A stretch of 32,000 bases of DNA from Akkermansia muciniphila ATCC BAA-835 (GTDB lineage Bacteria > Verrucomicrobiota > Verrucomicrobiia > Verrucomicrobiales > Akkermansiaceae). The stretch's first letter is position 1. Each line of letters starts with the position of its first letter. Below are positions 4,966 to 27,708 of the stretch, in pieces. The notes beneath the pieces were generated by a model, which saw nothing but the letters and a program-made list of their open reading frames with translations, was not told where the DNA came from and ran no database searches. Both the position numbers and the translations under genes were made by a program. The stretch is taken from contig NC_010655.1 in assembly GCF_000020225.1 (NCBI RefSeq), positions 2,430,001 through 2,462,000 on the forward strand. Reading direction: 5' to 3'.

Positions 4966-5793
4966 ATGAACTCGTTACGCCACATGCCCCGCCACGTTCT
5001 ATTCCTGAGGCTGGCCTATCAAGCGGGCATGTGCCTGCTGGCCCTGGTCGCCGTAACGCTGACCGCCATTGACCTGACAACGGAAGCGGCGGAATGGGAA
5101 GTCACGGCGGACCGCATCATCTACTGGATTTTTGTGCTGGATTATGTGATCCGCTTCTCCATCAGCCGGTCCAAATGGCTCTTCGTTAAAGAACACCCCT
5201 GGGATTTGCTGGCCATTATTCCCTTTGACGCCCTGTTCCGCCTGTTCAGATTCGCCTCGCTGGGAGAAATCTTAAGGCTCGCCAGATATCTGGACCTGTT
5301 TTCCTATGCCATGAGGTTCACCACGCGCATCCGGCGTTTCTTCAACACGAACGGATTCAAGTATATCTGCATCGCCGCCCTGGTCATCATCCTGCTGGGG
5401 GCCGTAGGCATCCATCTGGCGGAAGGCATGAGCCTGCCCAACGGCATCTGGTGGTCCTTCGTCACGGCTACCACGGTAGGCTACGGGGATACCTATCCGG
5501 TCACCACTTCAGGCAAATTCCTGGCTGTATTCCTGATGCTCACGGGCATTGGATTCGTGGGAACGCTCACCAGCACCATCACTTCCTTCTTTCTGAGTCC
5601 CCACGGCGGAGAAGCGCTGCCGTACCGGGAGGAGGAAATTGAGGCCATCAAAAAGAAACTGGACGACCTTTCCTCCATGACGGATGAAGACATAGACACC
5701 ATGGCGGCCCTGCTGAAGACCCTGCGGGACGCATCCTCGGCACCTCCAGCGGAAAAAGAGGAAACGCCTGATATCCATTCCGGAAAAAACTGA
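4966..5793 (+). CDS. Voltage-sensor-like potassium channel
   Basis: 275 aa. It has the TTVGYGD K+ selectivity filter, an Arg-rich S4-like helix (RLFRFASLGEILRLARYL) and multiple TM segments. Confidence 0.85.
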   Translation: MNSLRHMPRHVLFLRLAYQAGMCLLALVAVTLTAIDLTTEAAEWEVTADRIIYWIFVLDYVIRFSISRSKWLFVKEHPWDLLAIIPFDALFRLFRFASLGEILRLARYLDLFSYAMRFTTRIRRFFNTNGFKYICIAALVIILLGAVGIHLAEGMSLPNGIWWSFVTATTVGYGDTYPVTTSGKFLAVFLMLTGIGFVGTLTSTITSFFLSPHGGEALPYREEEIEAIKKKLDDLSSMTDEDIDTMAALLKTLRDASSAPPAEKEETPDIHSGKN

Positions 5794-5868
5794 AAAGATC
5801 CGTTTGGTATTACATCGGAAAAGACGTCCTGTCCGTACCAGGGCAAACACCAAATACTCAACCGTTTT

Positions 5869-6483
5869 TCAGTGAGAAGCTCTTAAGTCTCTATGTTGAT
5901 TACCAACTGCTTGGCCACCTTTAAAAAAAAGAAACGCCGCAATAACAATGTTGGCCAAAGGAACCAGTTTTAAAAACACCCACCATCCGCTCTCTCCTAT
6001 ATCATGAAGCCTTCGGACATCCGCAACAATATTGAAATATATAAAACAAATAAAAATAATAACTGTCAACACCAACATTCCTGCATCATTCCCTGTTTTA
6101 CTCCACATCATTACAACTCCACAAAGAAGAATACTAGCCATCATTGGCAATATCAGCAACTTTAGCACCCAATATTCAGATCTGGAAATACGACCGGAAA
6201 AACTGACATATTTTTTCAAAAATAAATTTCTATTCGCATTCCCCATTTTTATAGAAGCATTTCCCTCTATCTCTCTGCGGATTTTATGCATATCGGAAGC
6301 AGATACGGAAGACTTCAAAATCTCCTGTACGTCAGACGCATTACACTCTATTCCCAACTCATTATTCACGATGTCTGCAACTGCTTTAGAACTCGTTTTT
6401 GTCAATATTGCGACGTCCACAAGTTTATTGTATGCATCAATACGGGATAGCCTTTCTTCCGACTGTTCCATAACTTTTTTCAT
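5869..6483 (-). CDS. DUF805-family membrane protein with an extra ~90-aa N-terminal soluble domain
   Basis: 204 aa. The motifs GRISRSEYW and RRLHDIGESGWW plus TM helices are typical of DUF805. The gene is very AT-rich. Confidence 0.7.
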   Translation of the reverse strand: MKKVMEQSEERLSRIDAYNKLVDVAILTKTSSKAVADIVNNELGIECNASDVQEILKSSVSASDMHKIRREIEGNASIKMGNANRNLFLKKYVSFSGRISRSEYWVLKLLILPMMASILLCGVVMMWSKTGNDAGMLVLTVIIFICFIYFNIVADVRRLHDIGESGWWVFLKLVPLANIVIAAFLFFKGGQAVGNQHRDLRASH

Positions 6484-6531
6484 TGGTGATCTTTTTATAA
6501 ATACAGTAACTATGCCTCTTCTCTCTTCCCT

Positions 6532-6774
6532 TTACATTACTCCCAGCTTCTTCAGCATGGAGATGGCAACGGTATTTCCCTGTTCCGCAGCCAGACGATA
6601 CCAACGTATTGCTTCTTGCCTGTTTTTAGCGACTCCATGCCCAAAATAGAAACATGCGCCCAATCTTCTTTGTGCTTCTGCATTTCCTTTTTTGGCTGAC
6701 AAAAAATACCAGTTTACGGCTTCTCTTTTATTTTTCCCAACTCCGTTTCCAAAAAAATAACAGTCTCCCAGCAT
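6532..6774 (-). CDS. Sel1-repeat (SLR/TPR-like) protein fragment
   Basis: 80 aa with two Sel1 repeats (LGDCYFFGNGVGKNKREAVNWY, LGACFYFGHGVAKNRQEAIRWY). Repeat-like sequence continues upstream of the Met (EAQR-MLG). A signal-peptide ORF lies in another frame at 6734-6871, so the gene is probably disrupted. Confidence 0.55.
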   Translation of the reverse strand: MLGDCYFFGNGVGKNKREAVNWYFLSAKKGNAEAQRRLGACFYFGHGVAKNRQEAIRWYRLAAEQGNTVAISMLKKLGVM

Positions 6775-6985
6775 CCTCTGGGCTTCCCGTTTCCAAGGTT
6801 CGAGCTAAAACATGTTCACCCATCAGAAAGACTGTTCCAAATATGATTAATGTGGAAATAGAGATATTCATTTTTACCTGTTCTAACGGATTCCCAATCC
6901 GTACACTTATATTGAATAATGTAGAAAAAAATCTAACATATTTTCATAAATCATTGTTTATCCACTTCCATCTCCTCTCTCGTTC

Positions 6986-8134
6986 TTGTTTGATTTTTAT
7001 AGCTGTTATCAGCACATTTTAGACTTGTGTACGGATTGGGAATCCTCTGTTACAACGTTCTTCATGAACATACCTACTTCCTCTTTCCCAACTGACGCAG
7101 ACCAGGCCGGAATCTTCCTCATCCGTTCCCTGGGCATTCCGCCCATGGACGCTTTCCTTCTTTTAAAGGATCTCCTGGACACCAGCCGCGGAAGAGGCGA
7201 CAGAATAACCCGGGCCAAACGCTGCATACGGCTGGGAGGAGAGGCTCTTGCCGACAGGGAAAAAAGCGTATCGTTTTCCCAGGCTGTCCGCGCCAGCCTG
7301 GAAGCAAGGAAACACCGCCGTCCCCGCACGCTGCAGGAAATCCGCTATATGGCCGCCCGGATGATGAAAAAATGCCCGGAGCTGGCAAGGAAACAGGTCC
7401 GTTCCATCACTCCGGAAGATTGCGGGCGTTATCTCCGCAAAAGCTTTCCCACTCCCCGCCAGCGGCACAAGGGGCGGCTGATCCTGAGCGGCATCCTGAA
7501 TTATTCCCTGAAGCGCGGATGGTGCCGCAGAAACGCGGCCTTTCTGGTTCCTCCCCCCATCCTCAGGGAAAAACGCATCAGGGCCCTTTCCCTGTACGAG
7601 GCAAAGCGGCTTCTCCACACTGCGGAACAGTTGTTCCGAGGGGAATGCCTGCCGGCCTGCGCCCTGATGCTGTACGCGGGTATACGCCCCCACGAGGTCA
7701 AAAGGCTGACGTGGAAGCATATCAATCTGAAATCCGGCCTGGTTTCACTGGCGCCCACCCATACCAAAACGGGAGGGAGCCGCCATGTTTCCATCCTTCC
7801 CGTGCTGGGTTCCATCCTCAGCCGGATGTCTTCCGCCGGTTCCCCCGCCCGTTCCGTCTGCCCGCCCAACTGGGAAAAGAAATGGAAGGAAGTAAGGCGC
7901 CGGTCCGGCATCCTGAAGAAAAGCGGATGGGTTCAGGACGTGCTGAGGCATACCTACGCCTCCTACCACCTGGCCCATTTCTGCAATCAAAACCTTCTCC
8001 AGAAGGAGATGGGACACTCCTCCCCCTCCCTGCTGCTGGCCCGCTATCTTAATATGGAGGGCATCACCTCCGCAACCGGCGCCATGTTCTGGACGCACAG
8101 CTTTGTTTCTCCCGCTCCGTTAAAGGAAGACTGA
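6986..8134 (+). CDS. Tyrosine recombinase / phage-type integrase
   Basis: 382 aa. The catalytic signature is present: LYAGIRPHEV (Arg), LRHTYASY (His-x-x-Arg box) and GHSSPSLLLARYLN (His...Tyr). The alternative start at 7065 (MNIPTS) cannot be excluded. Confidence 0.85.
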   Translation: MFDFYSCYQHILDLCTDWESSVTTFFMNIPTSSFPTDADQAGIFLIRSLGIPPMDAFLLLKDLLDTSRGRGDRITRAKRCIRLGGEALADREKSVSFSQAVRASLEARKHRRPRTLQEIRYMAARMMKKCPELARKQVRSITPEDCGRYLRKSFPTPRQRHKGRLILSGILNYSLKRGWCRRNAAFLVPPPILREKRIRALSLYEAKRLLHTAEQLFRGECLPACALMLYAGIRPHEVKRLTWKHINLKSGLVSLAPTHTKTGGSRHVSILPVLGSILSRMSSAGSPARSVCPPNWEKKWKEVRRRSGILKKSGWVQDVLRHTYASYHLAHFCNQNLLQKEMGHSSPSLLLARYLNMEGITSATGAMFWTHSFVSPAPLKED

Positions 8135-8185
8135 CAAAAATCCGTCTGGAATTGCGCGGCCAAAGGCGGAGCAATCCCCTGCGCC
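8127..8185 (+). repeat. Direct repeat copy 1 (59 bp), att-like, overlapping the integrase stop codon
   Basis: aagactgacaaaaatccgtctggaattgcgcggccaaaggcggaGcaatcccctgcgcc. It is identical to 13834..13891 except for one extra g at 8171. Confidence 0.9.
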
Positions 8186-8205
8186 ATCAGACCGGAGGCG
8201 CATTT

Positions 8206-8965
8206 GTTTTGCCTTGAATCCAAAATAAGGCACAGTACAACAGACAGGGCTGGGGGACAAATACGTGGAGGGTTTTGCCTTGAATCCAAAATAAGGCACA
8301 GTACAACAGCACTACAGCATAATATCCAGAGCCAGAGGTTTTGCCTTGAATCCAAAATAAGGCACAGTACAACGTCTTTGTTCCTAATGGAAAGAACACC
8401 GTTGTTTTGCCTTGAATCCAAAATAAGGCACAGTACAACCTTCGCATAACACACATAATGCAAAGTCGGGTTTTGCCTTGAATCCAAAATAAGGCACAGT
8501 ACAACTCATCACTCTTTCCGGCGTTCCCCTCATCGTTTTGCCTTGAATCCAAAATAAGGCACAGTACAACCATTTGACAGGGGAGACTTCCATAAGCTCA
8601 GTTTTGCCTTGAATCCAAAATAAGGCACAGTACAACAATATCTAAAATCCTCAAACCTCTACACCGGTTTTGCCTTGAATCCAAAATAAGGCACAGTACA
8701 ACGGAGGAACCTTCTACCCCTACGGACCTGCTGTTTTGCCTTGAATCCAAAATAAGGCACAGTACAACTTGTGGCGCAGCATGCGCCGCGGCCATTGGTT
8801 TTGCCTTGAATCCAAAATAAGGCACAGTACAACGTAGCGCAGGTAGAGCTGACGGATGATCATGTTTTGCCTTGAATCCAAAATAAGGCACAGTACAACG
8901 ACTTTGATGCCGAAAATAATGCTTATCATGTTTTGCCTTGAATCCAAAATAAGGCACAGTACAAC
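8206..8965 (+). CRISPR. CRISPR array with 12 identical 36-bp repeats and 11 spacers (29-30 bp)
   Basis: The repeat is GTTTTGCCTTGAATCCAAAATAAGGCACAGTACAAC, starting at 8206, 8272, 8338, 8404, 8470, 8535, 8601, 8667, 8733, 8798, 8864 and 8930. All spacers are unique. The plus orientation is inferred from the tracrRNA anti-repeat geometry. Confidence 0.97.
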
Positions 8966-8990
8966 AGATACTGTGCCTTATTTTTATGTT
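8946..8990 (+). terminator. Hairpin plus T-run formed by the last repeat and an inverted partial repeat copy
   Basis: aaaataaggcacagt (8946-8960, inside repeat 12) pairs perfectly with actgtgccttatttt (8970-8984). The loop is acaacagat, followed by t/atgtt. It sits between the array and the cas2 stop. Confidence 0.5.
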
Positions 8991-9025
8991 CAGCGACTTA
9001 TAAAAAAATACGGCGTCCGATATTT

Positions 9026-9358
9026 TTACCAGAGGAGCATCTGCTGAGGCAGGGAAACCTCCTGTCGGGGACAAGACCTGCCATGAAAAACGAACATCTT
9101 ATCCCACTGGATATTCGTAACGAAAAGACAGCGGACAGAACCATCAGGCGGTATCATTTTCTGGATTCTGCGGGAGTGGGTAGCCATTCTTTCCTGAGTA
9201 ACGCACGCGCGGGCATAGACGCTATACTGAATCATCGTATAGCCGTCTTCTAAAAGAGCCTTACGGAAATATTGATAGTTTTTTTTATCTTCCGGCGTGG
9301 TTGTGGGAAGATCAAAGAACACAACTAGCCAGCCCATTTTATAGTTGTCATAAGCCAT
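9026..9358 (-). CDS. cas2: CRISPR-associated endoribonuclease Cas2 (type II)
   Basis: 110 aa. The motif WLVVFFDLPTTTPEDKKNYQYFRKALLEDGYTMIQYSVYAR is a typical Cas2 ferredoxin-fold N-terminus. The gene overlaps the cas1 3' end by 34 nt. Confidence 0.9.
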   Translation of the reverse strand: MAYDNYKMGWLVVFFDLPTTTPEDKKNYQYFRKALLEDGYTMIQYSVYARACVTQERMATHSRRIQKMIPPDGSVRCLFVTNIQWDKMFVFHGRSCPRQEVSLPQQMLLW

Positions 9359-10260
9359 GGTTCATACGGTTCGGATTGTCCGGCAAGAACTGCTTTGCGG
9401 AAACTGCGGCAAACGGCCTCTACCGCCGCTTTCAACGGCAGCTGTTTATCCCGGTACATGACAGAAGCCTGCAAGGTGGCTGTAATATGTTGCCTGAACT
9501 CACGGGTGATTTCTCCTGCTCTCTCTTCTGTTTTTCCTTCCCGCAGGCACAAATGAATCCAACGGGCCACATTGGCGTCAAAGGCAGGCCTGAAGGGTTC
9601 CATCAGATCATAAGCCAAAGGCGCCGCATGTTCCCGGGATTGATGAAAAATGCCGAAGCAGGGATCCAGCCCCAGAGCAAAGAGATATTGCAATATGCAA
9701 GACAACAGAATAGCGTACGCATAGTTGAAGAGGTTATTAAACCCCTCCTCATGACGTCCCCTGCGAAAATCGGAGTTTGCCCATGTATCCGCAAATACGC
9801 TCCAGAACAGGCGGGCGCACTCTGCTTCCCTCGCCGTCTTTTCCGTCACGGCCATTCTCTTCAGCTCCGCAATGGCGGGATGATGCGGATTCCATGCTTG
9901 GGCCAGAGCCGTCTGATTCCCACACTTGGCATCCAAAGTCTTTTGCCAAAGGCGGTTCCGCAAACGGGCCGGCATATCCGCCAGATGTCTTAGCAGACCG
10001 GTATCCGTAGACCGATCCGCTGGCAGGAGCAGCACGGCAGGCCTGTAGCTTTCACACAGCACAAATCCTATTCTCTTCCTGGCCAGTTCTATCAGCAAAT
10101 TGCTCGTGAGCGTCGCCTTAAAAGAACTGAGCACAACAGCCCCCACATCCTCCAGCGGAATCGTTCGGGGAGAATTCTCTCCATCCGCGCATCTGAGTTG
10201 GCCCTTGTCGCAGCTCAGATGGCATGTATAGGCATCTATGCTTAGAATATGGTATGACAT
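9325..10260 (-). CDS. cas1: CRISPR-associated integrase Cas1 (type II)
   Basis: 311 aa. The Cas1 C-terminal catalytic region is present (NNLFNYAYAILLS..., GIFHQSREHAAPLAYDLMEPFRP). The gene follows cas9 after 10 nt. Confidence 0.95.
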   Translation of the reverse strand: MSYHILSIDAYTCHLSCDKGQLRCADGENSPRTIPLEDVGAVVLSSFKATLTSNLLIELARKRIGFVLCESYRPAVLLLPADRSTDTGLLRHLADMPARLRNRLWQKTLDAKCGNQTALAQAWNPHHPAIAELKRMAVTEKTAREAECARLFWSVFADTWANSDFRRGRHEEGFNNLFNYAYAILLSCILQYLFALGLDPCFGIFHQSREHAAPLAYDLMEPFRPAFDANVARWIHLCLREGKTEERAGEITREFRQHITATLQASVMYRDKQLPLKAAVEAVCRSFRKAVLAGQSEPYEPWLMTTIKWAG

Positions 10261-10270
10261 GTAAAATGCC

Positions 10271-13200
10271 TTATCGTGGAGTTCCCGTATAAGAAGTAGG
10301 GTATCTTTTCATCTGGTATTTTTTTAATAAAGAAATGAGATCTACTTCACGCCAATTACATTCATGCGTCTTATTTTTAGGTACAGCGCAATGCGCTCTC
10401 TGAAGATCTAATTTTACGCCACCTTTTGAATCCTGTATGGATTCAATTCTCCATACACCTGCATGCTTGGGATCTTTAGACGAGGTTAAATGAATCAACA
10501 TGCCTTTTTTCAAAATGCGCACCGGCTTGCCGCCGTTCTGTTCTTTCAGGGCCATGATTCGCTTAAACACCTTAATATGTCTGATCACCACCGGCTTGGG
10601 ATCTAACGCCACTCCATAATTGCCATCAATTTCTATGGCTGCCTTAAGAGCCTTCAATTTTGACGGGCCTTCCGGAAACACTCCGACCAATTTGCTTGCT
10701 TTTACCTGATTTTTTTCCTTCTTCCCATCTTTCTTTTTGGAAAGAGAAACCATGGCATCCTCCCCGCTTCCATCAACAGAAAGCACTCTCTGCATGGTTT
10801 CCTTGAGTAAAGCGCCGCCCATGTCTGCAGGGACATGCTGAATGACCCTCTGCTCCATCAATTGTTCACGAATATTTTCTTTAAGAGAGGCGGAAAGATC
10901 ACGCAACATCATGCGTCCATCATCATTCAGGACATAATGACGCTGATTCGCAACAGGCCTGACTTGAGGTATCAGTTTTTCCGGAATTCGGCGCATGGCA
11001 AGAACACGTCTCAGCAAACCATTATGATGAGCGGGTATGATATAGGGAATAAGCCCCAGCACACAGGCATCCAAGGCATGATGCAAATGAGTGAGAGAAC
11101 GCAGGTTTTCCTTAAGAATCTTGCCGGAGTCCGGGTCGGCAGCTTCCGGGCATAATTCCTTAAAGACCCCAAAAACATCCCACGCCTTGCGAACTTCAGC
11201 AGTAACAGCGCCGGGAATCATGTCGATGTGCGCATCCGGCAGAGAGGTTTTAATAGACTTGCATGCCAGTTTCATCAGGTGGGAACTCTGCGTCATCATG
11301 CCTTCCGTCATGCCTATTTCCTTCATGGCCTCGTGATTTTGTGATTGATGTTTATGAGACAATCCCCTCACCATCAGTAAGGCTTTGCGCTTCTTTTTGC
11401 GCCTGCGGTCATCTTCATGCCCCTTCTTGTCATCCAACTTTTCAACCAATTCCCTGTAATTATTCAGGGAACAAATATGCAGGTTGGGTTTATCCGGCAC
11501 AGGATTCTCCTGCTCCTGCTCCACAAAGTCGTACCCGGTGCGCTGACCTTTCATCCTATTGACTCCCGGCCAGGTAAGAACCAGAGAAGAAAGCGCGTTA
11601 GACTGCCGGAAAGAATGGGGCACGATATGTTCCAGCTCCAGATTTTCCAGCTCATGATCGCCATACGTTGCGCCGGTGAACGGGCATGTCCAGTTCATGT
11701 CCATGGCAATGCGGCACTTGCGTATCAGGTTGGCAGAAAGCGCTTTCCCCGGCAACTTCCGTTTTAATCTATTGACGGCATCCGTATGGCTTTTCTGGCG
11801 CAGAGTTAGTTCTCTCTGAATTTTTTTGCTGTCCATGGCGGAAAACGTCGTCAGCTCCTTGCCAACTTCCACGCAAACGCGGGAGATTCTGTCTTTTTGC
11901 CCGTCAGCGAAATCTTGAATCAGATCCTTCAGCAAGCGATCCAGAATCAACATACGGTGACGCACAAGGTGGTTGTTGGTCATCGTATCAAGACGGCGCT
12001 CTTTCTGGTGCTGATTCACGGAAGAATCCGTATCAAGGAGGCAATACAGGCAACCGTCATGCGCTTTCAGTTCCCCATCCGGATGCGCTTCCCCCCGGGC
12101 AGGACGCGTCGGATCTTCTCCATCAAGAATTTCTTCCACCACTTTTTTCAAGACGGTGCGGGCATACGGCGCACGCCCCGTCGCATATTTGGGTTTTAAC
12201 GGAGTGTCGGCATAATCCGCCTCTTTCTTTTTAGATTCTTTCTCTATTTTCTTTTCCAACGCCTCGCCAGATTCCCCACGAGACTTAAGCAAATTCAACA
12301 AATAGTTTGGAGTAACGGACTTCCCGCGACGCAGGCGATTGGCGGCAATTCGATACACAGACGGCGAAAGAATTTGCCCGATGCCGCTTCTTTGCAGAAC
12401 TTCCACGGCAGGGTTCAGGTAAAGAGCCTCTTCGCTGTCAGGATGCAAAGTAAAATAGTTGCTTACATTAGTCTCTGTCTCCTTTCCCAGACGGGAAGAA
12501 ATAGCCTTCTCCAGAGAGGCTTTGGTCAACTTGCCTTCCTGTCGGGCCTGATTCATCAATTCTCTGCGTATCTCTGCAGAAAGAGGTTCTCCGTCTGCAC
12601 GGATATTGCATAAAATCCGGGCCATGCGGTATTCATAAAATTCCGGGCAATTCGCCGTGGGCACCTTGGATAGTTTTTCTGCCCGTTCACGGGCGCTTTG
12701 CTCAGAATTGCCTTTCTTCAACTCAGCTTCATACACCTGCGCCCACGTGACAGGGCAGCGGCTGATGATGCGGTTATCAAAACGGGGGATTAACTGCCCG
12801 AACAAAAGACTTCCACGATAACGCCGAGCCAATTTTATCCCGTGCTGAAGCAACACGCCGCGCTGTTCCGTTGTCAGGGGATGATGCTGCGCAATCAACT
12901 CTATGATCTCCGCAGTCAGCCCAGGAATCAGAGGCGCGGAAAGCTCCAATATGCGCCGTACCTCCTTTTCCACGATTAAGCGAGGAAAGGCGGTATTGAG
13001 ATTTTTATAAGCCGGCGTTGAAACCTCCATCGGAGCATCCGCTTTGCCTTCTTCCAGTTTCAACTCCCGGCAAATGGTTTCCGCCATGGTCGCCGTCCCA
13101 TGTTTATCCATCAAATCTTGAGCATGCTTCACTCTCTCGGTATCCTCACCGTTCCCGCCATCTTCTGAAAGGCTGTTAGACCATGAGGCATTATTGTCGT

Positions 13201-13579
13201 ACCCTCTGTTATGAGCATACCAGCGGAGAACATGCCAAAGCTCAATCGGGGCGAGAGTTCGATGCCCTTTTAACGCTTCTGACGCCAAATAAAAGGGAGC
13301 GGGGTGCCCGGAAGTTTCTTTCATTTCCGGCGTGATGATTTGCGCCTGAACCAGCAATCTGCCGATACGCTCAATGCGAACGCGCCGGGAGCGGATATTG
13401 CGTCTCAAACGTCTGTATTCACGCCTTTTAAATGCCTGACAATCATCTTTCGGAAACAGAACCGTACCGCAACCGCAAACCGAGGGATCCGCATCATCAT
13501 GGGATGCGGAAGCAATGACAGCCCATCCAATGGATGCATAACCAATATCAAACGAAAAAGTGAGAGAACGCGACATCAC
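10271..13579 (-). CDS. cas9: Cas9, compact type II-C (1102 aa)
   Basis: RuvC-I (FSFDIGYASIGWAV, Asp11), Arg-rich bridge helix (RREYRRLRRNIRSRRVRIERI), HNH (LELEHIVPHS...VNRMKG) and RuvC-III (HLHHALDACVLG) are all present. With only cas1 and cas2 as partners and no csn2 or cas4, this is subtype II-C. Confidence 0.97.
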   Translation of the reverse strand: MMSRSLTFSFDIGYASIGWAVIASASHDDADPSVCGCGTVLFPKDDCQAFKRREYRRLRRNIRSRRVRIERIGRLLVQAQIITPEMKETSGHPAPFYLASEALKGHRTLAPIELWHVLRWYAHNRGYDNNASWSNSLSEDGGNGEDTERVKHAQDLMDKHGTATMAETICRELKLEEGKADAPMEVSTPAYKNLNTAFPRLIVEKEVRRILELSAPLIPGLTAEIIELIAQHHPLTTEQRGVLLQHGIKLARRYRGSLLFGQLIPRFDNRIISRCPVTWAQVYEAELKKGNSEQSARERAEKLSKVPTANCPEFYEYRMARILCNIRADGEPLSAEIRRELMNQARQEGKLTKASLEKAISSRLGKETETNVSNYFTLHPDSEEALYLNPAVEVLQRSGIGQILSPSVYRIAANRLRRGKSVTPNYLLNLLKSRGESGEALEKKIEKESKKKEADYADTPLKPKYATGRAPYARTVLKKVVEEILDGEDPTRPARGEAHPDGELKAHDGCLYCLLDTDSSVNQHQKERRLDTMTNNHLVRHRMLILDRLLKDLIQDFADGQKDRISRVCVEVGKELTTFSAMDSKKIQRELTLRQKSHTDAVNRLKRKLPGKALSANLIRKCRIAMDMNWTCPFTGATYGDHELENLELEHIVPHSFRQSNALSSLVLTWPGVNRMKGQRTGYDFVEQEQENPVPDKPNLHICSLNNYRELVEKLDDKKGHEDDRRRKKKRKALLMVRGLSHKHQSQNHEAMKEIGMTEGMMTQSSHLMKLACKSIKTSLPDAHIDMIPGAVTAEVRKAWDVFGVFKELCPEAADPDSGKILKENLRSLTHLHHALDACVLGLIPYIIPAHHNGLLRRVLAMRRIPEKLIPQVRPVANQRHYVLNDDGRMMLRDLSASLKENIREQLMEQRVIQHVPADMGGALLKETMQRVLSVDGSGEDAMVSLSKKKDGKKEKNQVKASKLVGVFPEGPSKLKALKAAIEIDGNYGVALDPKPVVIRHIKVFKRIMALKEQNGGKPVRILKKGMLIHLTSSKDPKHAGVWRIESIQDSKGGVKLDLQRAHCAVPKNKTHECNWREVDLISLLKKYQMKRYPTSYTGTPR

Positions 13580-13601
13580 AAAAAAACTGCTTTAATTCAT
13601 A

Positions 13602-13628
13602 TTATATGCCAATATTGCATTCCATCAA
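13602..13628 (-). promoter_or_regulatory. Candidate cas9 promoter
   Basis: The minus strand reads TTGATG-15 nt-TATAAT (plus coordinates: -10 at 13602-13607, -35 at 13623-13628), about 20 nt upstream of the cas9 ATG in an AT-rich spacer. The 15-nt spacing is short. Confidence 0.3.
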
Positions 13629-13664
13629 GTATTTTAAAAATTATTCCATTCAGAAAAAAAACAG

Positions 13665-13694
13665 TTGACAAAACATCTGAACATCACTTTAACT
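13665..13694 (+). promoter_or_regulatory. Candidate tracrRNA promoter, divergent from cas9
   Basis: TTGACA (13665-13670), 18 nt, then TTAACT (13689-13694). The predicted start at about 13700 falls at the first base of the anti-repeat. Confidence 0.35.
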
Positions 13695-13699
13695 CCCAA

Positions 13700-13814
13700 C
13701 GGATTCAAGACAAAATTTGAAATGCAAACCGATTTTCCTGACTGCCAGCCAGTCACACCGGTAACAAAAGCATTTTTATCAAACTGCCATGTGTTTCAGC
13801 ACATGGCAGTTTTT
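13700..13814 (+). ncRNA. tracrRNA candidate
   Basis: GGAUUCAAGACAAAAU (13701-13716) pairs with repeat nt 1-16 (GUUUUGCCUUGAAUCC): 14 Watson-Crick pairs, 1 G-U and 1 mismatch. A structured tail follows, with stems 13720-25/13770-75, 13728-31/13759-62 and 13739-44/13750-55. A perfect 10-bp terminator, ctgccatgtg/cacatggcag (13784-13809), is followed by TTTTT. Confidence 0.65.
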
Positions 13815-13833
13815 ACACCTTCTGAAAGTTCGA

Positions 13834-13891
13834 AAGACTGACAAAAATCCGTCTGGAATTGCGCGGCCAAAGGCGGACAATCCCCTGCGCC
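13834..13891 (+). repeat. Direct repeat copy 2 (58 bp), att-like
   Basis: Identical to 8127..8185 minus one g. It lies 19 nt after the tracrRNA T-run and 51 nt before the alr ATG. Confidence 0.9.
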
Positions 13892-13942
13892 GGGAGCGTC
13901 CGTCGCCCCTCTTTTTTTCAACCTTTCCGCCATTCTCCAACC

Positions 13943-15049
13943 ATGCCAGCAACCAGCCCTCCCCGCGCCTGGGCCGAAATCGACCTTGGGGCCATCCGCC
14001 ATAACCTGAATGTCGTCAAACAGGCGGCCAAAGGGGAATATTACATGCCCGTCGTGAAGGCCGGCGCCTATGGCCACGGCCTGGAACAGGTTTGCCGCAC
14101 GCTGGATTCGGAAGGCATCGCTTTCTTCGGGGTGGCCAATGTGGGAGAAGCCCGGCGCATCAGCCAGGCGGGCTGCCGCACCCGCCCTTACATCCTGGGC
14201 CCCGCGTTCCCGGAGGAACGGGAGGAAATCGTGCTGAACGGCTGGCGCTCCTTCATTTCCACCATGGAGGAAGCCGCGCATTACAATTCCCTGGCGCGGC
14301 TGTACGGAAAGACGCTGCCCATCCACCTTTCCGTGGATACGGGAATGGGCCGCGGCGGATTCCTGCCGGACCAGCTTGAAGAACTGCTTTCCCGCCTGGG
14401 AGAACTGGACAGCCTGCATCTGGAAGGCCTGGGCGCTCACCTTCCCTGCGCGGACGAGGACCGGGAGATTACGCTCAGGCAAATCTCCCGCTTTGAACAG
14501 ATGGCCGCCCGCATCCGGGAAAAACTGCCTTTGAAGTACTGCCACCTGGCCAACAGCGCCGCCTCCCTGGATTATGAAATTCCCTCCAACAACATGTGCC
14601 GCCCCGGCCTGGTGCTGTACGGTTTTTCCCCCATTCCCTCCCCATGGGCCGCGCAATTGAAGCCGGCCATGGCCCTTTTTTCCCGCCTGACGGTGGTGCG
14701 CACGCTGCCGGAAGGCCACGGCATTTCCTACGGGGGTACCTTTGTGACGGACCACCCCACCAGGGTGGCGACCGTAGGCATAGGCTATGCGGACGGCTAC
14801 CTGCGTTCCCTGGCCCACAAGGGCGCCCGCGTCATGGTGGACGGCGTTTCCTGCCCCCTTCTCGGGCGCGTGACGATGGACCAGATCATGGTGGACGTCA
14901 GCCGGGCGCCGCACGCGGAACCGGGCATGACCGCAGAAATCATGGGGCCGCATATCCCCGTGACGGAACTGGCGGAAAAGGCCGGCACCATTTCCTGGGA
15001 GATTTTTACCGGAATAGGCCCCCGGGTACCCCGCCACTACACCCACTAA
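13943..15049 (+). CDS. alr: Alanine racemase
   Basis: Alr N-terminus (RAWAEIDLGAIRHNL...) and PLP-lysine region (VVKAGAYGHG). I trimmed the start from 13859 to the ATG at 13943 to avoid reading through the direct repeat. Confidence 0.9.
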   Translation: MPATSPPRAWAEIDLGAIRHNLNVVKQAAKGEYYMPVVKAGAYGHGLEQVCRTLDSEGIAFFGVANVGEARRISQAGCRTRPYILGPAFPEEREEIVLNGWRSFISTMEEAAHYNSLARLYGKTLPIHLSVDTGMGRGGFLPDQLEELLSRLGELDSLHLEGLGAHLPCADEDREITLRQISRFEQMAARIREKLPLKYCHLANSAASLDYEIPSNNMCRPGLVLYGFSPIPSPWAAQLKPAMALFSRLTVVRTLPEGHGISYGGTFVTDHPTRVATVGIGYADGYLRSLAHKGARVMVDGVSCPLLGRVTMDQIMVDVSRAPHAEPGMTAEIMGPHIPVTELAEKAGTISWEIFTGIGPRVPRHYTH

Positions 15050-24676: not shown

Positions 24677-25127
24677 AGAAATCTTCCAGAACCCTGGCGT
24701 AAACTTTCTTTTTAAACTCCGGCAGCCACTCCAGCTTAAATTCGGCTGGGGCTATCCACTTGTAATCGCAAAACTCCCGGTCATCCAGGACGGGTTCCGG
24801 AGCGTCCGCATGCAGCCAGCACAGGAAATACTCCTGCGCCTGCCCAACAAAAGGCTGCCGCCGCTTTTCACGAACATACTCCAGCACCTCCGGCGGATAA
24901 TCGTAACGATACCCCTTCCGGGATTCCACAATATTATACTGGGACGGCAAAAACCCCACTTCCTCCCCAATCTCGCGCCGCACGGCTTCCAAAGCCGTTT
25001 CCCCCGGGTCAATTCCGCCCTGGGGAAACTGCCAGGCTCCTTTCTGCCCGGAACGCTCGCAAATCAACAATTTCCCGTCCTGCCGGACCATCATCCCCGC
25101 AACATTCGGACGATACAATCTTTCCAT
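24651..25127 (-). CDS. rppH: Nudix hydrolase, RNA pyrophosphohydrolase-like
   Basis: YRPNVAGMMV...WQFPQGGIDPGETALEAVRREIGEEVG is a Nudix box with RppH-like context. I trimmed the start to the ATG at 25127. The 3' end overlaps meaB convergently by 26 nt. Confidence 0.75.
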   Translation of the reverse strand: MERLYRPNVAGMMVRQDGKLLICERSGQKGAWQFPQGGIDPGETALEAVRREIGEEVGFLPSQYNIVESRKGYRYDYPPEVLEYVREKRRQPFVGQAQEYFLCWLHADAPEPVLDDREFCDYKWIAPAEFKLEWLPEFKKKVYARVLEDFFNVRARDK

Positions 25128-25474
25128 GCCCTGTTCATTAACATACCCTTTTCCGCATTTCCAGCCATGTTCCTTCCATAAACCCGTTGAAAACGGGCAA
25201 AAAAATCCTTTCACAGATTTCCCCCCCTACTTCAAGGCACTCCGAATATCAACCGCCTTCCACCAGAAGAATAAGCGGTATAAAAAAACGAAAAACTTCC
25301 CGTTTGCGGCGGGAATTCCGGCCAATCAGCTAAAAACTTTAGTAATCAGATATTAACATACTGCCATTTTTCGAACATTGTTCTTTATTGGCAAGTCTAT
25401 TGTTCCTGCAAAGTAAAATATGGGAACCGGCCTTCCTTTTACTTTTCACGCGTTCCGTTAATAAAACTCCGATC

Positions 25475-26950
25475 ATGAAAACAAAAATGAACTATTTGAC
25501 AGCCACGCTTCTGGCAATATTTGCATGGGGCGGTACAGGCGTCGGTATGGCAAAACAATCCAAAAAGGCGCTAAGGCATCCCGTTGAAGACAACAAAAAA
25601 TCTCCCGGAGTTTACGATGCGAATCAAAATGACCGTCAAGGCATTCAAGATGCGGAACAAAGCCCCGGGGACAAACCGGTTACGTGGAGCATTTCCCGTC
25701 CCAATGCCAAAAACGCGCTGTCTGAAGTCACAAAAGGAATTTACCAGATTCACGGCGGAGGTTTTCCGAACATAACTATTATTGAAGGACGGGAAGGCAT
25801 CATGATCATTGCCCCTTTCGTCCCGAAGGAAACCATGGCCGAGAGTCTTGACCTCTATTACCGGAAGGCGGGAAAACGGCCAATCAAGGCTGTTGTAGAT
25901 GCACATCCACATACCAACTATTTTGCCAGTACCAAAAGAACGGCATCCGGGCTGGACATAGACGGCATAGAAATGGAATTCATGGCGGTTCCCGGAATGG
26001 GGGCCTCTTCTGCCGCACTGATGTATTTTCCCCAATTCAAGGCGCTTTTTTATGGAGAGGACACGGCAAGCGCCATACATGATATCTGCACTCTGGGAGT
26101 ATCCAAAATAAGGGATGCAAAAAACAGGTGGAAAGCCCTTGATCAAGCCATTCAGCGTTATGAAGACAAAATAGAGATTTTGTTCTCACAACACCATTGG
26201 CCCAGAATAGGAAAAGAAAATATCAAACGGTTCCTGGCCAGGGAATGCCGCAACTGCAAATACATGCATGACCGGATATTGAACCTGATTAGCAAAGGGT
26301 ATTCCCCCGCAGAAATTGAGGGAATAATCAATCCGATTCCGGAAAGCGGCAGAATCAGGAATAGCCCTCCGGAAATCACCGGGCAAAAGGACTATCGTCA
26401 AGACGCCGGGACATTAAGGAACGTTATGTCTGCCCATCTAAAAAGAGGAAACATAAGGAATCTGGTAAGAAATATGTTGAAACAGTTCGGTTATCAAACG
26501 GAACCCGTATTCCGGAACGATGAACTTCTCGTCAATGCCGGAGAACCGGGAATCGGGCTGCTTAAAAACTCCCGCGAACTTACGTTGACGGACACTTTAT
26601 ATGCCCTGACTCCGGAACTGCTGTTCGACTATTTGGGCGTCAGCCTGAATAGTGAGAAATCCAAAGGGAAAAAACTGGCTTTCAACTGGATTGCCCAAAA
26701 CGGAAGATCATACGGCTTCTGGATTGAAAACGAAGTGCTGATGTACCGCGAAGGAAAACTGGTCAAACATCCCGACGCAGTCATCACCGGAGACAGGCTC
26801 CACTTCGCCCTGGTCGCCATGCGGGCAATGCCCTTAAAGACAGCTCTGGACAAAGGCATGATTAAAATTGAAGGCAATACGGATAAATTCAGGGAATTGC
26901 TCGGATGCATGGATAAGTTCCATGGAAATTTCCATGCCATAACACCCTGA
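25475..26950 (+). CDS. Alkyl/aryl-sulfatase-like protein (MBL fold plus SCP2-like C-terminal domain), probably non-canonical
   Basis: Signal peptide (MKTKMNYLTATLLAIFAWGG). The MBL N-lobe resembles SdsA1/BDS1 (GIYQIHGGGFPNITIIEG), followed by a dimerisation region (LFSQHHWPRIG) and an Alkyl_sulf_C-like tail (IKIEGNTDKFRELLGCMDKF). The metal motif is degenerate (AHPHTNY, 25901-25921). Confidence 0.75.
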   Translation: MKTKMNYLTATLLAIFAWGGTGVGMAKQSKKALRHPVEDNKKSPGVYDANQNDRQGIQDAEQSPGDKPVTWSISRPNAKNALSEVTKGIYQIHGGGFPNITIIEGREGIMIIAPFVPKETMAESLDLYYRKAGKRPIKAVVDAHPHTNYFASTKRTASGLDIDGIEMEFMAVPGMGASSAALMYFPQFKALFYGEDTASAIHDICTLGVSKIRDAKNRWKALDQAIQRYEDKIEILFSQHHWPRIGKENIKRFLARECRNCKYMHDRILNLISKGYSPAEIEGIINPIPESGRIRNSPPEITGQKDYRQDAGTLRNVMSAHLKRGNIRNLVRNMLKQFGYQTEPVFRNDELLVNAGEPGIGLLKNSRELTLTDTLYALTPELLFDYLGVSLNSEKSKGKKLAFNWIAQNGRSYGFWIENEVLMYREGKLVKHPDAVITGDRLHFALVAMRAMPLKTALDKGMIKIEGNTDKFRELLGCMDKFHGNFHAITP

Positions 26951-27186
26951 TTCCATTACCTTTTTACGTACGTTTCAGGTTTTTCATCCGGAAACAGGAG
27001 TATTGGCATTTTCTATCAATATCATGAACTGTGCCAGTAAATATTATTCAAACAGTCATGTATTCCGGCGCAAGGGAGCAACTGAAAAAAGGGATGACAT
27101 TTATCCATGAACAGACATGTTCTCCCCCGCAAACATTCAACGATTTTTCCTTCCCATACAGTAAGAGCTGATATTAAATAGAAAGC

Positions 27187-27708
27187 ATGAAACGATTCTG
27201 CCTTCCTGTTTTAGCTCTATTTGTTTGTGCAGCCGCACCTCTTTCCGCCCAGTCCAAGAAAGGAGCCGCCGTCCCGTCCACGGATGACTACAACCAGAGC
27301 CAGTTCTGGATAGGCAATTTTCCGGAGGGGCAGTATGTGGTGCATCTCAGCCGGATTGTAGCGGTGGCGCAGCACAGGTATATTCTGGACAATGCCTGCA
27401 TGGTGTATGAAGTAACGCTGATTACCCTGGGGAATACGCCCACCAAGTTTTATTATCTGGAAACGCTGGGTCAAAATTCCGGTATCAACGCCATCAAGAA
27501 TGTGACTGACCGTGCGAAGGAGCTTGGGGCCGGCGCCGTCAACCGGGCAACGGGAGGCAGCATTGACCCGGATACAACCGTCGCAAAAGCTTACCCGAAT
27601 ACGAATACCGTGGAATTCCGTGTAGCTACCCTGGAGCAGCTCAACAAAATGTATGCTTCCCTTCTCAAGGCGTGGCAGGACGGAAAAGGGAGGACGTTCA
27701 GGCCCTGA
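27187..27708 (+). CDS. Secreted hypothetical protein
   Basis: 173 aa. It has a clear signal peptide (MKRFCLPVLALFVCAAAPLSAQ) and no motif I recognise. Confidence 0.55.
   Translation: MKRFCLPVLALFVCAAAPLSAQSKKGAAVPSTDDYNQSQFWIGNFPEGQYVVHLSRIVAVAQHRYILDNACMVYEVTLITLGNTPTKFYYLETLGQNSGINAIKNVTDRAKELGAGAVNRATGGSIDPDTTVAKAYPNTNTVEFRVATLEQLNKMYASLLKAWQDGKGRTFRP

Follow-up and report, generated by a model that had tools for sequence, protein, structure and literature searches.

Direct repeats of host origin around the type II-C CRISPR-Cas cassette of Akkermansia muciniphila and their possible role in its loss and exchange

In the chromosome of Akkermansia muciniphila ATCC BAA-835, a complete type II-C CRISPR-Cas module (short palindromic repeats, clustered and regularly interspaced, with their associated genes) lies between two copies of a short direct repeat, and the gene of a tyrosine recombinase ("integrase") ends within the left copy. 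Is this module an island moved by the recombinase next to it, or are the repeats themselves the means of its gain and loss? An original prediction, made from the sequence of this locus, had proposed that the repeats look like attL/attR-type junctions or substrates for homologous recombination, and that the module may be a gain/loss cassette mobilized in trans by the neighboring integrase. We addressed this question in a window of 32,000 nucleotides (NC_010655.1, positions 2,430,001 to 2,462,000 of the forward strand; coordinates below are those of the window unless a comparison locus is named) and in comparison loci, numbered with the prefix L, among them complete A. muciniphila genomes and metagenome contigs with exact matches to the protein of the recombinase or to that of alr, the gene on the far side of the module. 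On the basis of these sequence comparisons, it seems fairly probable that one old insertion duplicated the repeat, here called R, and that the cassette is now repeatedly and precisely lost, and exchanged, through homologous recombination on R.

The repeat R and its empty sites

The left copy (R-left, 8127..8185, plus strand) and the right copy (R-right, 13834..13891, plus strand) have 44 identical nucleotides (8127-8170 and 13834-13877), after which the left copy contains an extra g at 8171 and another 14 nucleotides are again identical (8172-8185 versus 13878-13891). At up to three mismatches, the 44-mer occurs exactly twice in the window and not once in 100 shuffles of it. R-left carries the last five coding bases and the stop codon TGA (8132-8134) of the recombinase gene and ends 20 bp before the first CRISPR repeat (8206). 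R-right starts 19 bp after the T-run (13810-13814) that terminates the trans-activating CRISPR RNA (tracrRNA) and ends 51 bp before the ATG of alr (13943), whose product matches Pfam Ala_racemase. The positions given in the original prediction for the repeats, the extra g, the integrase stop and the three gaps were all verified on the sequence. R-right has the same form as the single R of cassette-free strains and species, and R is native host DNA, consisting of the last 8 bp of the resident recombinase gene and 50 bp of conserved sequence downstream.

The idea of a gain/loss cassette presupposed that R is not a dispersed multi-copy repeat, and this was borne out in two collections. A degenerate 23-mer of the R core matched one contig among 185,579 species genomes (one genome per species), namely that of an uncultured Akkermansia metagenome-assembled genome with both copies at this locus. 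In metagenome contigs, where at least 139 occurrences of R were found in at least 115 stretches, 139 out of 139 lie at this locus among the matches listed. The junctions comprise at least 69 of integrase-R-array, at least 43 of tracrRNA-R-alr and at least 23 of integrase-R-alr, besides at least two of integrase-R at a contig end and at least two of tracrRNA-R-array. Among the matches listed, only one kind of cargo lies between R copies, with a spacing of 5.2-8.3 kb that varies with the length of the array.

Four locus states were found among the comparison loci, and the copy number of R tracks the state in every case. The window and most loci have the order integrase-R-cassette-R-alr (state D), and L003, L008, L010 and L013 have integrase-single R-alr (state C). 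In state A (L011 and six metagenome contigs), all of the integrase gene but the last ~53 bp is deleted, and this remnant is followed by R and alr. In state B (L012), the cassette is followed by R and alr, and the integrase gene, R-left and part of the array are replaced by ~880 bp of other DNA. L003 is 99.7% identical to the window up to 8185 and 99.3% identical from 13834 on, and the interval that it lacks is exactly the one between the repeats. CRISPR-negative relatives with a single-copy junction, as foreseen in the original prediction, are thus represented by these four state C loci and the at least 23 metagenome junctions of this type. The seven contigs in state A (L011 at 9840-9950, L042, L061, L063, L073, L074 and L081) have a fragment of a PEP-CTERM gene, then R, then alr. 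In sample OLZQ01, contig L131 ends in integrase-R with a tail of the right-copy type and overlaps the tracrRNA-R-alr contig L054 (5902-5956) by exactly 55 bp, which implies that empty and occupied junctions coexist in this sample, either in two strains or in a subpopulation with excision.

Evidence for recombination at R comes from clustering of the flanks (800 bp of the recombinase gene and 740 bp of alr, with members linked at eight differences or fewer). The window-like haplogroup comprises 14 occupied and 5 empty alleles, and a second haplogroup, 4.7% away from it, comprises 3 occupied and 6 empty ones; within flank haplogroups, the two kinds of allele are no more than 0.5% apart. By the sequence that follows R directly, the second haplogroup divides into three right-flank subtypes, two of which hold both states. 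Occupied and empty alleles both occur within at least three flank lineages, and because independent insertion with identical junctions is implausible, precise loss, or R-guided gain, is likely to have taken place at least three times.

Cassettes also appear to have moved between lineages. Cassette ends of the window type lie in flanks of the second haplogroup, with the right breakpoint between 13832 and 13873 and the left one at 8129-8166 in L046, at 8126-8166 in L055, and at 8062-8104, inside the recombinase gene, in L040 and L064. Such variable left breakpoints favor general homologous recombination, a process that searches ~5% diverged flanks for their longest stretches of identity. Moreover, the cassettes themselves are mosaics across haplogroups (window 8965-13833 versus L046, L055 and L103), in which cas2, cas1 and the 3' part of cas9 are near-identical between haplogroups with a flank difference of ~5%, and a mid-cas9 block (roughly 11400-13200) differs by 5-23%.

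These patterns would be best explained if a single ancient insertion of a compact type II-C module at R had left R duplicated on both sides, so that the two copies, with their identical 44-bp core, became substrates for the general homologous recombination of the cell. Recombination of R-left with R-right would delete the cassette precisely and restore the ancestral integrase-R-alr site, while recombination in or near R would move whole cassettes between diverged strain backgrounds, and the neighboring recombinase would be required neither for loss nor for exchange. It is classical bacterial genetics that a chromosomal segment can be deleted when short direct repeats on its two sides undergo homologous recombination, and the locus resembles such cases in having repeats of 44-58 bp around a dispensable segment, one hybrid copy after loss, and crossovers that vary. 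It differs from them in that R is a duplicated conserved gene end with a terminator rather than an insertion-sequence element or a ribosomal RNA operon, and in that R also marks the ends of cassette exchange between diverged lineages. Thus, the part of the original prediction that described a gain/loss cassette and a substrate of homologous recombination is supported by the exact empty sites and by breakpoints in or near R, but the part that described a true attL/attR element is not.

A. muciniphila is a gut commensal that has been studied widely and is a candidate probiotic, and in this species large surveys left the patchy presence of type II-C systems unexplained. Such systems were found in ~33% of its genomes with "no clear phylogenetic structure" (Karcher et al., PMC8278651). 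Precise loss and cassette exchange via R would supply a mechanism for this distribution, and a duplicated 58-bp host sequence would be a simple and testable one, for clean repeated loss as well as for the swapping of cassettes between lineages. In addition, the copy number of R (one versus two) offers a strain-typing marker of a size suited to the polymerase chain reaction, and R might serve as a natural "landing pad" for engineering.

Several points weigh against recombination on R as the driving process. The direction of each event, loss or gain, was assigned by parsimony, and 44-58 bp is short for efficient RecA-type recombination. One introgression has both breakpoints in the first 40 bp of R, which would be expected of a site-specific crossover as well. 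Across lineages that are ~9% diverged, R-left is near-invariant in its first 44 bp and its tail diverges fast, a pattern that is not fully explained; exchange with R-right or some other function may account for the invariance. Furthermore, the junction expected of a circle after excision or of a tandem duplication, tracrRNA-R-array, is present in contigs L093 and L097. Their authenticity is ambiguous: L093 has 3.2-fold coverage, begins with an adaptor and brings together sequence types of two lineages, and L097 is a circularly permuted cassette that starts and ends within the array. Both may be assembly chimeras or repeat mis-joins, and coverage-guided repeat resolution in samples that mix occupied and empty strains could yield joins of this kind.

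With respect to the sequence of R, positions 31 and 40 of the repeat (8157 and 8166 in the left copy, 13864 and 13873 in the right) have the same C/T and G/A polymorphisms in both copies across strains, and both are CpG sites. These shared polymorphisms could mean either that the copies exchange sequence or that cytosines, possibly methylated ones, have mutated recurrently. The idea that R-left and R-right evolve in strict concert was considered and rejected, as left and right haplotypes are mixed at repeat positions 31, 34 and 40.

The recombinase and the alternatives

The alternative that survives best, although it still seems rather unlikely to us, holds that the repeats are the passive scar of one insertion, that R-left and R-right do not recombine, and that crossovers in the long homologous flanks (integrase and alr) have shuffled an old presence/absence polymorphism among strains by allelic replacement. 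L015 and L088, in which integrase and cassette were imported with a right crossover inside alr (13987-14020) and not in R, fit this idea, and so do the mosaic cassettes, which imply that homologous recombination across the region is frequent. It also agrees with the fact that no empty allele was found with both flanks identical to those of an occupied one, the closest pair having 1+1 differences in 1540 bases. However, an old two-allele polymorphism would make the flanks cluster by state, which is not the pattern found: in each of at least three flank lineages, which lie several percent from one another, the immediate flanks are near-identical for both states. Several breakpoints, moreover, map inside R itself.

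It would be tempting to regard R-left and R-right as true attL and attR sites, such that the neighboring or another recombinase excises a circle that re-integrates at a single R, in the manner of a trans-mobilized island or an integron-like capture. The recombinase gene (7064..8134, plus strand; Pfam Phage_integrase) abuts R-left, the empty sites are precise, the introgression with both breakpoints near the start of R would follow from a fixed crossover site, and the junctions in L093 and L097, if they were authentic, would be those of a circle or tandem. Nevertheless, we consider this reading improbable. The recombinase gene lies outside the cassette and is syntenic with alr across Akkermansia, being present in the empty strains (the four loci in state C) and in cassette-free species (L022-L028). 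Orthologues with 78% and 87% protein identity in other Akkermansia lineages have the same synteny (an ion-channel gene, variable minus-strand genes, the recombinase gene and alr), a single R, and no cassette. The recombinase gene of L015 is a pseudogene with an in-frame TAG (about 3090 of that locus), and both repeats and the cassette are still there.

Further, the recombinase has an obvious candidate substrate of its own. Directly upstream of its start codon lies a putative inverton (6888..7045), in which perfect 19-bp inverted repeats (6888-6906 and 7027-7045) with the core CGGATTCCCAATCCG surround a 120-bp segment. Akkermansia invertons have the inverted-repeat motif CGGATT..AATCCG (PMC13343947, citing Jiang et al. 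2019), which this core fits. In 66 contigs the segment is oriented 61 times as in the window and about 5 times as the reverse complement, so that inversion is deduced from comparison across strains and not from reads of one culture. Like the described invertons, 6888-7045 thus has the motif, both orientations, and a place between a tyrosine recombinase gene and divergent secreted or surface-type genes; in PMC13343947 we found no mention of this segment or of its link to the recombinase beside the CRISPR module. Upstream inverted-repeat pairs whose core is of the AATCCG type and whose arms are 126-203 bp apart also occur at the orthologue in L022 (7789-7946), at a 60%-identical homologue in a different context in L029 (7746-7984), and at a 50%-identical paralogue in L146 (4822-4985), and no comparable pair was found at the second paralogue locus, L149. 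The paralogues are divergent from adjoining large autotransporter genes and have housekeeping genes on their other side, and the family looks like one of invertase-inverton modules that control surface proteins. Given this adjacency, the recombinase most likely flips the inverton directly upstream of its own gene. A strain-variable region (~5733-6884) ends at the left inverted repeat (6888), which suggests that the site of the recombinase is also a hotspot of gene replacement. The minus-strand genes in this region are wholly different between strains, encoding DUF805 and Sel1 proteins here and PEP-CTERM or unknown proteins elsewhere.

R, by contrast, lacks the full CGGATT..AATCCG motif. It holds the half AATCCG, and the heptamer AATCCGT is common to R and the inverton repeats; as a specific link between the two, however, this heptamer was rejected, since it occurs 13 times in the window. 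Like an integrase-mobilized genomic island, the element is bordered on each side by a direct repeat, of which empty sites have one copy, but the integrase is not part of it and is present when it is absent, no crossover position is fixed (left breakpoints at 8062-8104, 8126-8166 and 8129-8166, some of them within the integrase gene), and R is without the family motif. The att model also gains little from the single kind of cargo, from a megablast search of the cassette against plasmid and phage collections, which gave no match, or from a search for the exact circle or tandem junction, which gave no match in genome contigs and metagenome contigs with a pattern that was too strict, as a looser scan later found the two variant junction contigs L093 and L097. 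Mobilization by the neighboring integrase, as suggested in the original prediction, therefore finds no support, and we leave integrase-driven mobility of the cassette only a small residual probability. CRISPR-Cas modules on integrase-bearing genomic islands with att direct repeats are known, for example in Vibrio (PMC6360697), and the present locus resembles them in its complete module within direct repeats beside a tyrosine recombinase gene, in its presence or absence, and in the single repeat left when it is empty. It differs in that the Akkermansia element is minimal, with ~20 bp beyond the array and the tracrRNA, and encodes no integrase, in that the recombinase is resident and outside the repeats, and in that it was found at one chromosomal locus only and on no mobile element. 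Thus, a recombinase gene beside a repeat-bounded island need not be what mobilizes that island.

A variant in which R is an integron-like recombination site, where the Cas9 cassette is taken up and set free, through circular intermediates hinted at by L093 and L097, by the adjacent recombinase (via the AATCCG half-site) or by another tyrosine recombinase, seems very unlikely to us. The length of the repeat recalls the "59-base elements" of integrons. As in integrons, a resident tyrosine recombinase adjoins a site with a promoterless-looking cassette and a repeat of ~59 bp; unlike in integrons, R is at the 3' end of the recombinase gene and not upstream of it, there is no attC-type imperfect palindrome, and the cargo is a single one of 5.7 kb. 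The integron integrase model gave no match above cut-off to the recombinase, nor was there any IntI-type match, and the only matches were weak Xer-like ones far below the cut-offs.

The least probable alternative, to which we give hardly any credence, is that R is a target-site duplication from a transposon-like or Cas1-mediated insertion, since, although the duplicated sequence is host DNA that is single-copy at unoccupied sites and cas1 and cas2 lie inside the cassette, the cassette has no terminal inverted repeats and no transposase domain, related cassettes at unrelated loci (among them L152 and, in A. glycaniphila, L156) have no R-like borders, and all transposon or casposon target duplications known to us are far shorter than 58 bp.

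Age and origin of the cassette

Recombination on R, which we continue to prefer, agrees with evidence that R preceded the cassette. In L022, from a cassette-free species with the 78%-identical recombinase, the first 50 bp of the one R are 94% conserved, and its neighbors are less so (76% for the 3' end of the recombinase gene and 73% for the stretch from R to the ATG). A single conserved R in cassette-free lineages implies that R is older than the cassette.

The cassette, too, appears to be old. Cas9 homologues within Akkermansia have 99, 94, 91, 82, 76, 70, 58 and 53% identity, the last being that of A. glycaniphila, and the occupied state is also found in a lineage ~91% identical to the window, in which divergence is similar in cassette and flanks. 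In L154, from a more distant species (flanks 86-87% identical), a 70%-identical cassette in the same orientation lies directly upstream of a single R followed by alr; this locus has no recombinase gene and ~95 bp, versus 19 bp in the window, between tracrRNA and R. A remnant of the integrase 3' end was sought in these ~95 bp, and local alignment was no better than with shuffles. The graded series of Cas9 sequences, the ~91%-identical occupied lineage and L154 together indicate that the module has long resided in the genus and at this site.

Two candidate routes could have led to the first insertion, and either would yield the arrangement present at the locus. One is a single crossover of circular DNA that carried a copy of R. 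The other is homology-anchored illegitimate recombination of an L154-like chromosome into an integrase-R-alr chromosome.

The cassette and the transcripts around R

Between the copies of R lie only the CRISPR array, cas2, cas1, cas9 and the tracrRNA gene; the content of open reading frames (ORFs) and domains thus agrees with the earlier claim that the repeats enclose these and nothing else. The array (8206..8965, plus strand) comprises 12 repeats of 36 nt, all of them identical, with 11 spacers. It is followed by cas2 (9026..9358, minus strand; Cas2 model, 62 bits), cas1 (9325..10260, minus strand; type II NMENI subtype model, 153 bits) and cas9 (10271..13576, minus strand), which encodes 1101 aa with an HNH domain and scores 191 bits against TIGR01865 (cut-off 100). 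No further ORF with a cas domain was found between the copies, and neither csn2 nor cas4. The tracrRNA (13700..13814, plus strand; 5' end approximate) comprises an anti-repeat (13701-13726), a nexus-like hairpin, and a terminator hairpin with the T-run; its region scores as a structured RNA with terminator (z = -4.1), and the anti-repeat is 81-85% complementary to the CRISPR repeat. These features, namely cas9, cas1 and cas2 without csn2 or cas4, a tracrRNA anti-repeat and an adjoining array, are those of type II-C. In canonical type II-C loci such as that of Neisseria meningitidis, tracrRNA, cas9, cas1, cas2 and array occur without a fourth cas gene. The present locus has the same gene order, likewise no fourth cas gene, and an array transcribed towards the cas genes, but differs from that of N. 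meningitidis in its flanking 58-bp direct repeats and exact empty sites. The A. muciniphila Cas9 has been listed among type II systems (PMC3737331), and the locus has been called canonical (Karcher et al., PMC8278651); in the Akkermansia literature searched, we found no description of it as a minimal cassette bounded by R with exact empty sites.

Pairing of the tracrRNA anti-repeat with the 5' part of the CRISPR repeat places transcription of the array on the plus strand. The recombinase-side end of the array is its old (trailer) end. A hairpin after the array (8946..8990, plus strand; z = -5.7), in which the last repeat pairs with a complement downstream of it and after which a U-run follows, probably terminates transcription of the array before cas2. 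Comparison of spacers suggests that new ones are acquired at the cas2-proximal end: spacers 66-69 are present in L016 and 66-70 in L019, the only spacer common to L001 and L004 is number 13, near the recombinase side, and degenerate first repeats in L015 and L020 support the same polarity. The array is nevertheless transcribed towards cas2, where it ends in the strong hairpin built from its last repeat.

Some cassettes show further variation. In two complete genomes, cas9 is split into two ORFs, of 582+502 aa in CP024738 and 213+884 aa in CP114595 (L009 13208-16512 and L018 6331-9637). The 22-repeat array of L012 (3593-5015) has internal duplications, with one spacer twice in tandem and another again six positions on, and its left end is broken off within a repeat by the ~880-bp insertion, which is AT-rich and encodes a small membrane-like protein.

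The right end of R falls within a predicted intrinsic terminator of the recombinase gene (13872..13917, plus strand), a hairpin of GGCGGAC..UCCC, the loop CUGCGCC and GGGA..GUCCGUC, followed by a U-run. In folding, R positions 39-58 constitute the 5' arm and the loop of this hairpin, the 3' arm and the U-run come directly after R-right, and the end of R coincides exactly with the boundary of loop and 3' arm (13891/13892). The hairpin at R-right thus looks like the terminator of the recombinase. At R-left, a substitute hairpin (8180..8210, plus strand) appears in the minimum-free-energy fold, in which the end of R-left and the 20-bp spacer form UGCGCC, 11 nt and GGCGCA, and the T-rich tract UUUGUUUU then runs into the first CRISPR repeat; this might take over termination of the recombinase transcript. 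The idea that R is a structured RNA was rejected, as RNAalifold with five sequences, a small alignment, returned the hairpin at R with no compensatory pairs or covariation, and the z-scores of the R regions were not significant. A scan of R for promoter consensus found none. An Rfam search over 6700-14100 gave sub-threshold chance matches only, so that R and the tracrRNA fit no curated family.

With respect to base composition, the interior of the cassette has a G+C content of 0.46-0.52 versus 0.54-0.63 in the flanks, and is thus AT-richer, as had been noted. A second low-G+C stretch of the window (25000-27500; 0.47 versus ~0.57 around it) contains a 520-aa ORF at 25388-26950.

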